From: a virus
Strand: one strand, 5' to 3'
DNA: 5,652 bases
UHGV virus genome: UHGV-0478246
The position numbers were made by a program, and so were the translations under genes. The notes beneath the pieces are model-generated. The model saw nothing but the letters and a program-made list of their open reading frames with translations, was not told the DNA's origin and did not search any database. Shown here piece after piece: positions 1-5,652 of this stretch (its first letter is position 1; each line of letters starts with the position of its first letter).

Positions 1-416
1 TGTTCCTCTGTTAGTTCTGTCCATATAATGCCGTGCAGATGTATTCTTTTGGTATTGTCGTGTCCCATTTCTGTGATTAGCCAGTGTTTGAGTGGTTTCT
101 TATACTTTTTCCACCATCGTTTTCTGAATAGGCTGACTGCTTTTTGAGGTGTTTTGTTCGGTTCGTTTTCGTCATACTCTAATTTTTTTAGGCTTTCTTC
201 GGAGAACGTCAGCGTTGCAAATATAGTATTTTTTTGATTGGATTTTATTTCTTCCATCAATCTTACTCTCCATTCATTTGCTTTTGCGCGTCTGCATTCT
301 TCGCAGTGTCCGCATGGAATTTGGATCCATCTCAGACGACGGTCTCTTATTCTTTTAGCGTTTTCGTTCGATTTGGCGTACTTTGGATTCTCTATGGTAC
401 TTGGATATAGACACAC
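1..416 (-). CDS. Replication initiation protein VP4 (rolling-circle Rep), N-terminal portion. The ORF runs off the left edge and continues at 5652. The likely start is GTG at 416..414. The alternative is ATG at 450..448 followed by a +1 frame change near the A5 run at about 421-425.
   Basis: Minus-strand translation gives (V/M)CLYPSTIENPKY...IPCGHCEECRRAKANEWRVRL (the Cys cluster typical of microvirus VP4). It continues to NTIFATLTFSEE (RCR motif 1, about 204-221) and KRIHLHGIIWTEL (HxH motif 2, about 21-41). No in-frame ATG lies upstream of the Cys cluster, and the frame is closed by TAA at 443..441. This ORF is absent from the supplied track because it crosses the window edge. Confidence 0.8.
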   Translation of the reverse strand, partial: MCLYPSTIENPKYAKSNENAKRIRDRRLRWIQIPCGHCEECRRAKANEWRVRLMEEIKSNQKNTIFATLTFSEESLKKLEYDENEPNKTPQKAVSLFRKRWWKKYKKPLKHWLITEMGHDNTKRIHLHGIIWTELTEE

Positions 417-454
417 TGTTTTTAATTGAAATTTGCCCCTTTAAAATCATTTTT

Positions 455-1663
455 CTACCATTTTGTTGTTACGGTTTTATCTACTCCCTTAAATTTCATC
501 TCCGGATCGTAGTGTTGTGTTACTGTCGATGAATTCTTGGGGGGTGTTTCGTTCATCCTTCTTTCCGTGTATTCTCTGATTGCCTTTCCTGTTTTTCCTC
601 CGATTGCCAGGTTCCCCACTAATTGTGCCAGCTTGATGATCGTATTCGCTATTTCGGTCCAATATTGGAGTTCTCGCAGGTCTGCGGTTGCTTCTTCGGT
701 TCTCTTTTTTGCTTCGAGTACTTTTGCTTCTGCTTCTTGGGTTTCGCCTGCTGCGTAGAAGTAAGCTGCTTGAGCCATTGCGCTGCATGCGTCTGCGTTT
801 ATTTTTTTGATTTCCGCTGATAGTTTTTCGTCTGCATATATGCTTTCCAGAGTTTTGATCGCCGCTGTTCCTTCGAGGATTTGTTTTTCGGCTTTCATCA
901 TATCGCCCTGGAATGATTCTTCTCCGAATATGATCTTCCCGAATTTATCGTCCTCTATTTCGAAGTATTTAGGTATCTCGATTTCTTTGCCGTCGATCGT
1001 CGTTTTTTTTGTGGGTTGCCATTTTACCATTTGGTCCCATAGTTGGTTCGCCGTATTGATGAAGCCCTTCCATCCTTCGAACATCTCTTGCTTTACTTGC
1101 CACAATCTTTTTTCGATTATCGTTTGGGTTTCCTCTTGGTTTTTGCCTGCTTCCGCTTCGAGTGCTTTTGCTTGCGTATTCAGTAGTTTGATTTCTGCTT
1201 CGTTCTTTCGTTCGCTCATCCGCACCTGTCGCAATGACATCAATGCTTGCAGTTGCATATTCGGATCGGCTGCCGATCCTGCTCCTGTAGCTCCTGTTGC
1301 ACCCATTGGAGCACCCGTCGTCGAACCGGCTCCTCCGCCTCCGGCACCTCCTTTGCCGTACATCAGACCGGGAGACAATCCCGCTGCATCCATTTGTGCG
1401 ACCTGGTTGGCATAGCTTTGGTCTTGGTAGGTTCTGTCGTATAATACCTGCTGTCTTTCGAATGCATTCTCCGCCGCCATTTCTCCGTATTTGTAATTTA
1501 TTTTGGCTGCATTCTCTGCCATCTCTTTCTGCTGCCTTATCTGTCTCCTCCTGCCTATGCCCAGCATGTTGCCGATACCTGAGATGCCGCCCATTATTCC
1601 CGAGAGAGGGTTCATAACATCCTCTCCTTTTTCGAGTAATTCAAGTAGTTTTTTAAAGTTCAT
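455..1663 (-). CDS. VP2 (minor capsid / DNA pilot protein), 402 aa.
   Basis: The ORF is given in the track. It lies immediately upstream of VP4, and a 107-aa ORF separates it from VP1. It contains '...YANQVAQMDAAGLSPGLMYGKGGAGGGG...', which resembles the AGLNPxL-Y-GG motif I recall from gokushovirus VP2. A Gly/Ala/Thr-rich flexible linker follows (about 1259-1387). The rest is coiled-coil-like and K/E/A/Q-rich. Confidence 0.75.
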   Translation of the reverse strand: MNFKKLLELLEKGEDVMNPLSGIMGGISGIGNMLGIGRRRQIRQQKEMAENAAKINYKYGEMAAENAFERQQVLYDRTYQDQSYANQVAQMDAAGLSPGLMYGKGGAGGGGAGSTTGAPMGATGATGAGSAADPNMQLQALMSLRQVRMSERKNEAEIKLLNTQAKALEAEAGKNQEETQTIIEKRLWQVKQEMFEGWKGFINTANQLWDQMVKWQPTKKTTIDGKEIEIPKYFEIEDDKFGKIIFGEESFQGDMMKAEKQILEGTAAIKTLESIYADEKLSAEIKKINADACSAMAQAAYFYAAGETQEAEAKVLEAKKRTEEATADLRELQYWTEIANTIIKLAQLVGNLAIGGKTGKAIREYTERRMNETPPKNSSTVTQHYDPEMKFKGVDKTVTTKW

Positions 1664-2145: not shown

Positions 2146-4191
2146 TTATAAGTTTGGAATTTGTTTTGCTGACATTACTCTACGTGCTGTTACGTCGAAC
2201 GCCACTTGGACCCAGAAGTTTTGCGAGCTCAGTCTCGACTCCGCGAATATATTGTTATATATTGTCGGATCGATGTACGTCGACGCGTTAGAAATTGTTT
2301 TATTTATCCCTTCTTCGTATATTCTATTCAAACACATGAATGCTAAAGGCATTCCCGCGGCAAATTCGCCGTACGTTTCGTTTACGTCTGTCGTGTATTC
2401 GATCCATGACGGTTGTTTTCCTAATGATTGGTACGTGTGGTTGAAGTTTTCAGTGGTTTCTGTGCTCCATGCTGCTGCTTCTTCTGCTATCAGTTCTTGA
2501 AATCCGATTGCGTCCAATGTCGGCTTATGGAAGTCATCCATATTTTGCAGTCTTGTCCACCATTTGTTGCCTTGGCTGTAATCGATTCGGGGTGTAATCG
2601 ATCCCAAGGCCATGATCATGCTTGGCTCTGTGCATTTGATTTTCAAGCCCCTTCCGGATTTGTACATAGTTGCGACTCCTCGTCCGGCAAGTGTTCCTAA
2701 CGGTTCTTCATCTGTTGCTGAGTTTGATACGATTTCGTCGAATGCGATTTCGCTCTGCATTCCGCCGCAGAATATAGGAGATTCGGGTAGTGTCGTGCTT
2801 CTGACTCCGTATGTCGCTTCTCTCCATGCTTGGTAAGTACCATCCGTAATTGCTACGCGATTCAGCATGTTGAAGATCTTTTTTTGGAGGATCAGAGCAT
2901 CCATCGTAAGTTTTCCATCGCTCACATCTACCGCTGTGATCGCGTTGATCCCTCCGGTCGTCCCGTCGATCCACTCGGTGTTCAGCCAGTTGTTGAACCT
3001 GTCGCTAAGGTATGTTTTTACTGCCAGTCCTGCTTGTGAATACCATGAATTTGAACTGGTATAATATTTCGTGCGGTTATAGTTCGGTAGTCGTAAGGTT
3101 CCTATTGCAGCCGCATACGGCATTTTGTTGTCTTTTACTGTGTACACCGCAGAACTGGGTGCCGCTAAGATTGCCGTCCGTTCGTCGTCGATGTTTTTTA
3201 ATGGAAATTCTGTTAGTTTGATCTTCTGGTTGTCCGGCATTGTTAAATTGAATTCCCCGGCTATGTCTTGATTGTATGCAATTTTGATTGCTTTTTTGAC
3301 TTTGTACGCGTAAATGTTGGTCGCCTTTTTCGGGTTGTCCGGTGCCTTGAGTCCCAGCGCTTCCGGGTCTGTTCGTTCGAATACGAAGGAGTCTCCGAGT
3401 TTTGTCAGTTTGTTGGTTTTTGCTGTAGGGTTTTTCGGATCATTCGTTAAGAATTGTATTTCATTGACTTCCTCAGGTGAGATTTTTTCCTCGAATTCCA
3501 GTTTGATGTACATTGGTAAATTATCTGATGGACTGATTGTGTATGTTACACTTGAGTTGGTTAGCCATTCTTTAGTCCATTCGACTCCGCTTCCTACACT
3601 GATTTTCTTCCAAATATGGTTTATTCCGGTGATTACGTATGCGTTTTCTTCCTGTTTGTTGGCGTAATAGTTTTTGAATATGTCCCAGTACGCCAGATTG
3701 AATATCGCAGGAAATCTTCGGAGGTATTGATTGACTCTGGAGTGTCCGAATCCTTTTATTCCCAAGTATGAGAGTAGCGAGCTCGGATTGACCTGTCCTC
3801 TGTTGGTGTCGTCTTCATAGATCGATGCATTGGCTGTATATACTTGAAATTGCGGCAATAGTACCTTACTCATGTTCAACCCTACTCCTAAAGCGTTGTT
3901 ATGCAGTGCTGCTATATAGAGTCTGATCGGAATTACGAATACGTCGATTTGATGTTTGAAGCTGCCGAATACAGGTCCGGTTGTCGGCAGTGTTTTTACT
4001 TTTGTCGTGATATCGATGTAGAATGTCGTTCCGTCCATACCTATCTGGCACCAATAGGGAACGATTGTGCCGCATGCTTGTGATGTTCGGATTATTTTTC
4101 CTACGTTATGCGATGATCTACCGAAATTGGGTAGATATACTTCCATTTTGCTTTCGCTTCGGATTCTGTCTCCTCCTAATGTTTTTTTCAT
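2146..4191 (-). CDS. Major capsid protein VP1 (Microviridae F/VP1 family), 681 aa. The second Met, at codon 16 (about 4146), is a possible alternative start.
   Basis: The N-terminal signature 'FGRSSHNVGKIIRTSQACGTIVPYWCQIGMDGTTFYIDITTKVKTLPTTGPVFGSFKHQIDVFVIPIRLY' matches the microvirus pattern F.LSH...T...G.L.P....GD.F....R..P...P...FFVP.RL.W. The C-terminal 'NRVAITDGTYQAWREATYGV' matches the conserved GG.Y.DW....G region. Its size is larger than gokushovirus VP1 and typical of Bacteroidetes-associated microviruses. Confidence 0.9.
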   Translation of the reverse strand: MKKTLGGDRIRSESKMEVYLPNFGRSSHNVGKIIRTSQACGTIVPYWCQIGMDGTTFYIDITTKVKTLPTTGPVFGSFKHQIDVFVIPIRLYIAALHNNALGVGLNMSKVLLPQFQVYTANASIYEDDTNRGQVNPSSLLSYLGIKGFGHSRVNQYLRRFPAIFNLAYWDIFKNYYANKQEENAYVITGINHIWKKISVGSGVEWTKEWLTNSSVTYTISPSDNLPMYIKLEFEEKISPEEVNEIQFLTNDPKNPTAKTNKLTKLGDSFVFERTDPEALGLKAPDNPKKATNIYAYKVKKAIKIAYNQDIAGEFNLTMPDNQKIKLTEFPLKNIDDERTAILAAPSSAVYTVKDNKMPYAAAIGTLRLPNYNRTKYYTSSNSWYSQAGLAVKTYLSDRFNNWLNTEWIDGTTGGINAITAVDVSDGKLTMDALILQKKIFNMLNRVAITDGTYQAWREATYGVRSTTLPESPIFCGGMQSEIAFDEIVSNSATDEEPLGTLAGRGVATMYKSGRGLKIKCTEPSMIMALGSITPRIDYSQGNKWWTRLQNMDDFHKPTLDAIGFQELIAEEAAAWSTETTENFNHTYQSLGKQPSWIEYTTDVNETYGEFAAGMPLAFMCLNRIYEEGINKTISNASTYIDPTIYNNIFAESRLSSQNFWVQVAFDVTARRVMSAKQIPNL

Positions 4192-4672: not shown

Positions 4673-4801
4673 TTTGATGCCGCTTGCTTTGAGGTGGTGC
4701 TTATGAGTGCATCCTTGCTCTATGATTACGGCAGCTGCGGCGCCGATTGCGGCTGCTATTACCGCGATCCATTTTACGATTTTCTTTACTTTTTCATTCA
4801 T
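4631..4801 (-). CDS. Unannotated small ORF, 56 aa, with one predicted N-terminal transmembrane helix. Candidate membrane or lysis protein.
   Basis: My own translation, checked base by base: MNEKVKKIVKWIAVIAAAIGAAAAVIIEQGCTHKHHLKASGIKIDTIEVSTTTKIK*. The ATG at 4801..4799 overlaps the ORF119 stop (ATGAATGA). The TAA at 4633..4631 lies 1 nt before the ORF144 ATG. It fills what would otherwise be the only unexplained 164-nt gap in a tightly packed genome. It is below the 60-aa track cutoff. The GC-rich patch at 4729-4768 is its Ala/Gly-rich hydrophobic core. Confidence 0.55.
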   Translation of the reverse strand: MNEKVKKIVKWIAVIAAAIGAAAAVIIEQGCTHKHHLKASGIKIDTIEVSTTTKIK

Positions 4802-5153
4802 AGTTCAGTGATAATTGAGTGTCTGTGTTTTTGATCATTACTATCCTTCTGATAATAGGTTCGTACAGTTGTTTTCTTTCGTTGTATATCCAGTTGCTTA
4901 CCTCGTAGAAGCTGATGCCGGTTCTTTGTGGTTTTCGAGTATCTACGTATTCCTTGTCGAATGTTTCTCCGTCTTCTGTCACGTAGAATGTTCCTTCGTA
5001 TTGGAAGTTTCGTCTGGATACTGCTTCTGCACCGATCAGTTTTGTAAGATTAGTGGATCTATCTCCGATGTCTCCTCTTCCTTTGGTGAATTTATTATCC
5101 TGTTTCTGGTCAATATATTCTCTATTTTTCTGGTCGCAAATTCCGTTTCCCAT
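4794..5153 (-). CDS. Hypothetical protein, 119 aa, immediately downstream of VP4.
   Basis: The ORF is given in the track. Its ATG lies 3 nt after the VP4 TGA. Its stop overlaps the start of the 56-aa ORF. No motif recognised. Confidence 0.55.
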   Translation of the reverse strand: MGNGICDQKNREYIDQKQDNKFTKGRGDIGDRSTNLTKLIGAEAVSRRNFQYEGTFYVTEDGETFDKEYVDTRKPQRTGISFYEVSNWIYNERKQLYEPIIRRIVMIKNTDTQLSLNYE

Positions 5154-5156
5154 ATT

Positions 5157-5652
5157 TCACGAATTAATTGTTCCTTCTTTATGATCAGGTCTGCATATGC
5201 CTTGCATATTTCCTTCTTTTCTCTTTCCGTCATATTTTTTGATCGATTGCCAATATTTTACTGCGTGTACATACTCTTCGTATTGTTTTATTGTTTCCAC
5301 TTTGATAGGAGTTTTGTTGTAGTACTTTACTTGTTTTTCCTCTTTTATGATCCGGAGGGCTTCGCGTTCTTGATCTGTCCATATTTTTTGCTTGTAGTAT
5401 GTCGGTAGTGCTACTTTTATTCCTGATTCTGTTCTGTATGTTTCTTCTGTGAATTTATCCTGATATCTATGCCTGTTGAGTGTGTTTTTGTTTATGTAGT
5501 TTATTCCGATTTTTTTTGAGGTGAATATTTTTCCGTTGAATTCAGGGTTGCTTTCGTCTTTTTTCGTTATGTATTTTATGATGTAGTTTATTGTTCTTTC
5601 GTTTACTTCATACCCGAAGAATACCCAGCCGTACCCCCATTCTTTTTCGAAT
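5157..5652 (-). CDS. Replication initiation protein VP4, C-terminal portion. It enters at the right edge and stops with TGA at 5159..5157. Total length is about 303 aa if joined to 1..416.
   Basis: Minus-strand translation gives FEKEWGYGWVFFGYEVNERTINYIIKYITKKDESNPEF... The stretch NYIIKYITK is the RCR motif 3 (Y-x-x-K-Y catalytic tyrosines, about 5562-5585). The spacing from motif 2 is about 35 aa across the junction, as in microvirus Rep proteins. Confidence 0.8.
   Translation of the reverse strand, partial: FEKEWGYGWVFFGYEVNERTINYIIKYITKKDESNPEFNGKIFTSKKIGINYINKNTLNRHRYQDKFTEETYRTESGIKVALPTYYKQKIWTDQEREALRIIKEEKQVKYYNKTPIKVETIKQYEEYVHAVKYWQSIKKYDGKRKEGNMQGICRPDHKEGTINS

Follow-up and report, generated by a model that had tools for sequence, protein, structure and literature searches.

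A probable GTG start codon for the Rep (VP4) gene of a gut microvirus, with ATG at the same codon in about half of the close genomes

GUG initiation codons are known in bacterial and phage genes, dnaA of Escherichia coli being one example, and they are common in genes for replication initiators of low abundance. Gene A of phage phiX174 gives a full-length protein and also A*, an in-frame product that is initiated internally. The ribosomes of Bacteroidia disregard Shine-Dalgarno sequences. In Flavobacterium johnsoniae, low structure and adenines at positions 0, -3, -6, -12 and -13 tune initiation (PMC6847099), and Alpavirinae occur integrated in the genomes of Bacteroidales (PMC3091885, PMC3394797). 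In the literature on GTG start codons of Microviridae we found nothing specific to the present case.

The window that we analyzed, 5652 nt in its full length, is a complete circular microvirus genome. All genes are on the minus strand, in the order VP1-VP2-VP4 on a 5.6-kb circle. VP1, the major capsid protein (2146..4191, minus strand), matches Pfam Phage_F. The VP2 open reading frame (455..1663, minus strand) encodes the DNA pilot protein (PHROG "pilot protein for DNA ejection", best value 5.7e-07); its stop codon, TAG at 457..455, lies 38 nt upstream of the proposed Rep start. The Rep/VP4 gene comprises 303 codons plus TGA and spans the linearisation point of the window. It runs on the minus strand from 416 to 1 (codons 1-139) and then from 5652 to 5157 (codons 139-303 and the TGA at 5159..5157), and the translation is unbroken across the junction. 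The same 303-aa architecture is present in five relatives (L003, L016, L018, L020 and L024).

Rep matches the Pfam family PF23343 (REP_ORF2-G2P) with E = 1e-11 and 45.4 bits, against a cut-off of 27.8. There are 1159 homologues at E <= 1e-10, nearly all with PF23343. The protein has a motif 1 (FATLTF), an HUH motif (H126-L-H128) and a tyrosine motif of the form Y-x3-Y-x2-K with Y162-x3-Y166; the residues H126, H128, Y162, K165, Y166 and K169 are invariant columns in the family alignment (A1). Judged by the profile match and these motifs, Rep is a Microviridae VP4 protein and a member of the HUH superfamily. Neither the full-length Rep of the window nor a version truncated at Met54 had an exact match in the protein collection, and an Rfam scan of the whole window gave no match.

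The 3' end of the gene shows some features of its own. Rep and a downstream ORF of 119 codons (4794..5153, minus strand) share a frame in every genome compared. The linker between them (5157..5210 in the window, minus strand) is short and holds one to three in-frame stops, the positions of which vary by genome (codon 286, 289, 298 or 304). In two public proteins, P0001 (423 aa) and P0011 (370 aa), Rep is fused to the downstream ORF. Because the stop positions differ and fusions occur, the effective C-terminus of Rep is variable (285-303 aa, or fused). Another ORF of 65 codons (5036..5233, minus strand; MTEREKKEICKAYADLIIKKEQLIREIW…) lies in a different frame and is kept in all relatives examined. 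Part of it is shared with the Rep tail (codons 279-303) and part with the beginning of the ORF at 4794..5153; a PHROG search with it gave no match. In the overlap with the Rep tail the variable sites are distributed 19/8/11 over the three positions of the Rep frame, and position 1 of Rep is the third position of the 65-codon ORF. Selection in this overlap tracks the 65-codon ORF, not Rep.

At the 5' end, the Rep frame is closed upstream by a TAA (441..443, minus strand), which is at the same position in 32 of 33 relatives. From this TAA the frame reads AGG GGC AAA TTT CAA TTA AAA ACA GTG TGT CTA TAT CCA, with the GTG at 416..414, and the encoded N-terminus is (M/V)CLYPSTIENP…PCGHCEECR. The eight codons between the TAA and the GTG include no ATG, no TTG and no second GTG. 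The next canonical starts in frame, TTG at 260..258 and ATG at 257..255 (Met54), are both past the conserved cysteine motif. These readings bear out the preliminary description, which had stated that Rep is without an ATG start and that the GTG is the only start-like codon ahead of the conserved N-terminus. The GTG (414..416, minus strand) is homologous to Met1 of the family. It is preceded by an A-rich untranslated leader of 24 nt (417..440, minus strand) with A at -3 and at -6. The leader contains the A5 run that had been described previously; the run exists, its position had been misplaced at 421-425. It occupies 419..423 (423..419 on the minus strand), and the string ttaaaaaca corresponds to 425..417.

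The nearest ATG, at 450..448, is 4 nt past the VP2 stop and 34 nt upstream of the GTG. As previously stated, it is out of the Rep frame, and a +1 shift would be needed to reach that frame from it. It opens an ORF of 31 codons (355..450, minus strand), which we considered as a conserved gene and rejected. The ORF had no PHROG or Pfam match, its start varies, and in different genomes it is 18, 28, 31 or over 50 codons long. The first position of its codons falls on the freely varying third position of Rep, which also counts against a conserved gene.

We compared this region with that of close relatives. A protein-guided scan of IMG/VR gave 36 loci with a Rep that is 83-92% identical to the query; additional close loci came from contigs encoding public proteins and from later scans. 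A distant blastn search with positions 1-1000 of the window against the phage collection yielded no close genome, all matches being short and 70-85% identical. Among the 43 close genomes (the window included), the codon at the identical position is ATG in 22 and GTG in 21, and in all 43 it stands directly before TGT/TGC-CTA-TAT-CC. The nearest relatives (L042-L046) are five separate assemblies with 96.6-96.7% nucleotide identity in Rep; all five have GTG, and their first 59 residues are identical. The orthologous region, the inspection of which had been proposed as a check, carries ATG or GTG at an identical codon with an unchanged number of bases.

The preliminary description had offered a homopolymer indel as an alternative, in which an assembly or sequencing error in the A5 run had removed or added one A; a run with one A more or fewer would put ATG 450 in the Rep frame. 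Homopolymers are indeed error-prone, and one public protein (P0004) begins MILRVKFQLKT-MCLYP, with the upstream ATG in frame in that genome. However, P0004 retains the canonical ATG immediately before CLYP, and the 11-residue N-terminal extension is missing from 35 of 37 family members. In 37 of the 38 close genomes that were aligned, 24 nt separate GATTTTAA from the start codon, and these include all 21 aligned genomes that start with ATG and need no correction; length variation in the VP2-Rep spacer is confined to the stretch between the VP2 stop and GATTTTAA. The run itself is AAAAA, AAAAG or GAAAG where the start is GTG, and AAAAC or AAAAA where it is ATG. All its changes are substitutions and none affects its length, and among the relatives compared we found no run-length difference that would restore an ATG-initiated frame. 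The five assemblies at about 96.6% identity have the same GTG at the same spacing. The constant spacing, the independent assemblies and the substitution-only changes in the run therefore exclude a homopolymer indel, and we assign this explanation hardly any probability.

A programmed +1 frameshift, with a start at ATG 450 and a slip into the Rep frame near the A-run, had been the other alternative. Most relatives have ATG 450, the A-rich context around it is good, and the frame that it opens extends over the Rep start. However, the upstream ATG is replaced by ACG in six relatives. One of these is of the ATG type (L026); the other five (L003, L016, L021, L031 and L047) are of the GTG type and have no ATG in either frame, which speaks decisively against the proposal. 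The relatives that start with ATG have an identical geometry and require no shift. Moreover, the putative slip site lacks conservation, and neither a prfB-like shifty stop nor a stimulatory structure is present (MFE -7.8 kcal/mol, z = +1.28). In the 27 nt that precede the GTG, variable sites are spread without bias over the codon positions of the Rep frame. A frameshift is hence as improbable as the indel.

The string GATTTTAA (441..448 in the window, minus strand) hardly varies among 38 close genomes, and this holds also where ACG replaces the ATG that it overlaps. The nick site of phiX174 is TG^ATATTAA, and we considered a similar site in GATTTTAA, into which the G of ATG 450 falls. This candidate was rejected: the pattern TGAT[AT]3-5A occurred upstream of Rep in 2 of 51 distant relatives, compared with 12 of 347 background windows.

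Rep differs between GTG genomes by as much as 19% at the nucleotide level and 16% at the amino-acid level; therefore the allele is old and viable. In a neighbour-joining tree of Rep, computed with the start codon omitted, the GTG genomes form a basal grade and the ATG genomes a nested clade. The sole exception is L012 (IMGVR_UViG_3300029230_000057), a GTG genome within the ATG clade. Its sequence is a mosaic, which is 95-98% identical to the GTG clade from -60 to +100 and 95-100% identical to the ATG clade from +200 onwards. Such a pattern indicates that L012 is a recombinant in which a GTG-type 5' end was joined to an ATG-clade body, with a breakpoint within Rep at about +100 to +200.

Loss of a start codon by mutation is a common route of gene loss, and the window could in principle be a defective genome in which such a mutation had inactivated Rep. 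The distribution of the allele argues strongly against this. GTG is found in 21 of the 43 genomes and in many samples, the ORF has stayed intact and under purifying selection across a divergence of up to 19% in nucleotides, and the clusters derived from GTG genomes contain hundreds to over a thousand member sequences. The probability of a defective Rep is practically negligible.

More distant homologues give the same start position. Across 37 homologues with 41-56% identity, M1 and C2 never vary and L3 and Y4 hardly do, and the GTG of the window aligns with M1. Exactly at M-C-L-(Y/H) start 35 of the 37. The N-termini of related VP4 proteins, which had been suggested for comparison, hence begin as the M-C-L-Y-P reading predicted. 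The nine invariant N-terminal columns in A1 are C2, N10, C35, G36, C38, E40, C41, W49 and R52. The four cysteines, C2 and C35-x2-C38-x2-C41, are invariant in 38 Rep sequences (411..413 and 294..314 in the window, minus strand). This suggests a candidate zinc-binding module at the N-terminus, which would include the first residue after Met. The start position is rigidly fixed, and a zinc module that includes residue 2 would explain why.

Distant loci from IMG/VR at 41-48% identity have ATG in 40 of 42 cases and GTG in two (L096 and L097); ATG is present in 11 of 11 loci from bacterial genome assemblies. The distant loci are mostly ATG, and thus ATG is the ancestral state of the family and GTG arose more than once. 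The GTG of the window differs from the ancestral ATG by one A-to-G transition at the first codon base. It is a long-lived allele in this species-level group of gut microviruses, where about half of the sampled genomes have it.

The coding constraint allowed us to examine whether translation begins at the GTG or farther downstream. In codons 2-59, the variable sites at positions 1/2/3 number 12/13/31 in 15 GTG genomes and 11/7/30 in 18 ATG genomes. The two groups show the same pattern of third-position bias, and therefore the 58 N-terminal codons are translated. No codon-position bias is seen in the 27 nt upstream of the start (5/2/4 in GTG genomes and 4/5/2 in ATG genomes). The signature of coding constraint hence begins at the proposed GTG, as expected for a gene initiated at GUG.

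These data also bear on the possibility that Rep is made solely from the internal ATG at 257..255 (Met54), as a protein of 250 aa without the cysteine-rich N-terminus. Met54 (255..257, minus strand) is the first ATG in frame, and it has been chosen by several gene callers, for example in P0009 (695 members) and P0015 (1184 members). A start there would lose the conserved segment of codons 2-53 (258..413, minus strand) with Cys2 and C35-G-x-C38-x-E-C41. However, codons 2-53 are open, GTG genomes and ATG genomes alike have substitutions biased to the third position there, and the nine invariant family residues, among them C2, C35, C38 and C41, lie upstream of Met54. Met54 itself lacks conservation across the wider family; A, I, N, S, L and other residues occur in its place. 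An exclusive start at Met54 is very unlikely. A minor second product from Met54, in the style of the phiX174 A* protein, is conceivable by analogy.

Codon position, homology to the family Met1, the ATG/GTG polymorphism, the constant spacing and the downstream coding constraint are all observed here. We put the probability at about 90% that Rep/VP4 is translated from the GTG at 416..414, with fMet as its first residue, into a normal 303-residue M-C-L-Y-P protein. The initiator tRNA would read this GTG as formyl-methionine. GTG initiation with an M-C-L-Y-P N-terminus had been the reading first suggested for this locus, and the comparison of genomes supports it.

The sequence around the start offers some indication of how initiation might proceed. 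No Shine-Dalgarno sequence was found at a functional spacing for any gene in the window, and all leaders are A-rich. All genes but Rep start with ATG. A GGGG at 439..436 is 19 nt upstream of the GTG, too distant to serve as a Shine-Dalgarno sequence. The RNA around the Rep start is weakly folded (MFE -7.8 kcal/mol, z = +1.28; 182 of 200 shuffled sequences are at least as stable), and no base of the GUG is paired in the MFE structure. Initiation is most likely independent of Shine-Dalgarno pairing and of the Bacteroidia kind, with an A-rich, weakly structured leader and A at -3 and -6. Integrated relatives of Rep with 37-44% identity were located on long contigs from Dysgonomonas (73 and 266 kb), Bacteroides, Phocaeicola and Paludibacteraceae, in line with the Bacteroidales-associated Alpavirinae (PMC3091885, PMC3394797). 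These relatives, together with the lack of Shine-Dalgarno sequences, make a host among the Bacteroidales likely.

A 5673-nt contig in an assembly of Acinetobacter (L128; NZ_JACWEU010000076.1, "Acinetobacter lwoffii strain SU1904") encodes a Rep that is 87% identical to that of the window. This contig is as long as an entire phage genome and is most likely a contamination, not a host signal.

The base at -3 is a purine in all 21 GTG genomes (9 A and 12 G) and C in 17 of the 22 ATG genomes. This association may reflect compensation, or plain linkage within two clades; few independent changes were seen. With a GUG start the amount of Rep would probably be somewhat lower than with AUG, a reduction that the phage evidently tolerates. 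ATG 450, with its good A-rich context, could capture ribosomes ahead of the Rep start. One might go further and propose that the ATG/GTG polymorphism is an adaptive dial for the Rep dosage in a host without Shine-Dalgarno guidance, co-tuned with the Kozak-like -3 base, and that the ATG 450 ORF might join in. We consider this idea rather doubtful.

The finding has consequences for public annotation. The proteins P0009-P0017 are 250 or 235 aa long and begin with MEEIKS, i.e. at Met54; P0009, for example, is a 250-aa protein named "MAG TPA: Replication associated protein [Microviridae sp.]" in nr. The contigs that encode these proteins have the GTG and an intact 53-codon extension. P0009-P0017 are thus truncated gene calls on GTG-type genomes, with Met54 as a false start, in which 53 conserved residues including the four invariant cysteines were dropped. 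Two automated calls in sister genomes, P0008 and P0002, begin at the GTG itself. The GTG start is hence already known to standard software, which calls it inconsistently. The main value of the present analysis lies in annotation: in an abundant group of human-gut microviruses the correct Rep model starts at GTG. In addition, the locus presents a clean natural polymorphism between ATG and GTG starts in a phage whose host probably does not rely on Shine-Dalgarno guidance at initiation. As a small test case, it could help to show how expression in Bacteroidia depends on start-codon identity and on the -3 base.

How does this locus compare with the known systems? Like other genes with a GUG start, such as E. 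coli dnaA, it has GTG in the place of the initiator Met, presumably decoded by fMet-tRNA, and the codon swaps with ATG among orthologues. The two differ in their context, which here is probably independent of Shine-Dalgarno sequences, as in Bacteroidia, whereas in E. coli it is Shine-Dalgarno-guided; we found no other mechanistic difference. The GTG start described here is an ordinary alternative initiation codon; it is textbook biology and involves no new mechanism.

With the VP4 proteins of Microviridae and gpA-type HUH Reps, the Rep of the window shares PF23343, the HUH motif, the gene order and the existence of relatives integrated in Bacteroidales, and its Y162-x3-Y166 resembles the paired tyrosines of phiX174 gpA. 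The VP4 genes of Alpavirinae-like gut microviruses, the candidate subfamily for the window, differ in the start codon, which is GTG here and ATG in 40 of the 42 distant viral loci and in all 11 assembly loci. The closest parallel to the internal ATG is phiX174 A/A*: both genes have an in-frame internal ATG, here Met54, downstream of a weaker main start. Unlike for A*, there is no sign of a translation start at Met54; the family does not conserve this residue, and public gene models that begin there are artefacts of gene callers.
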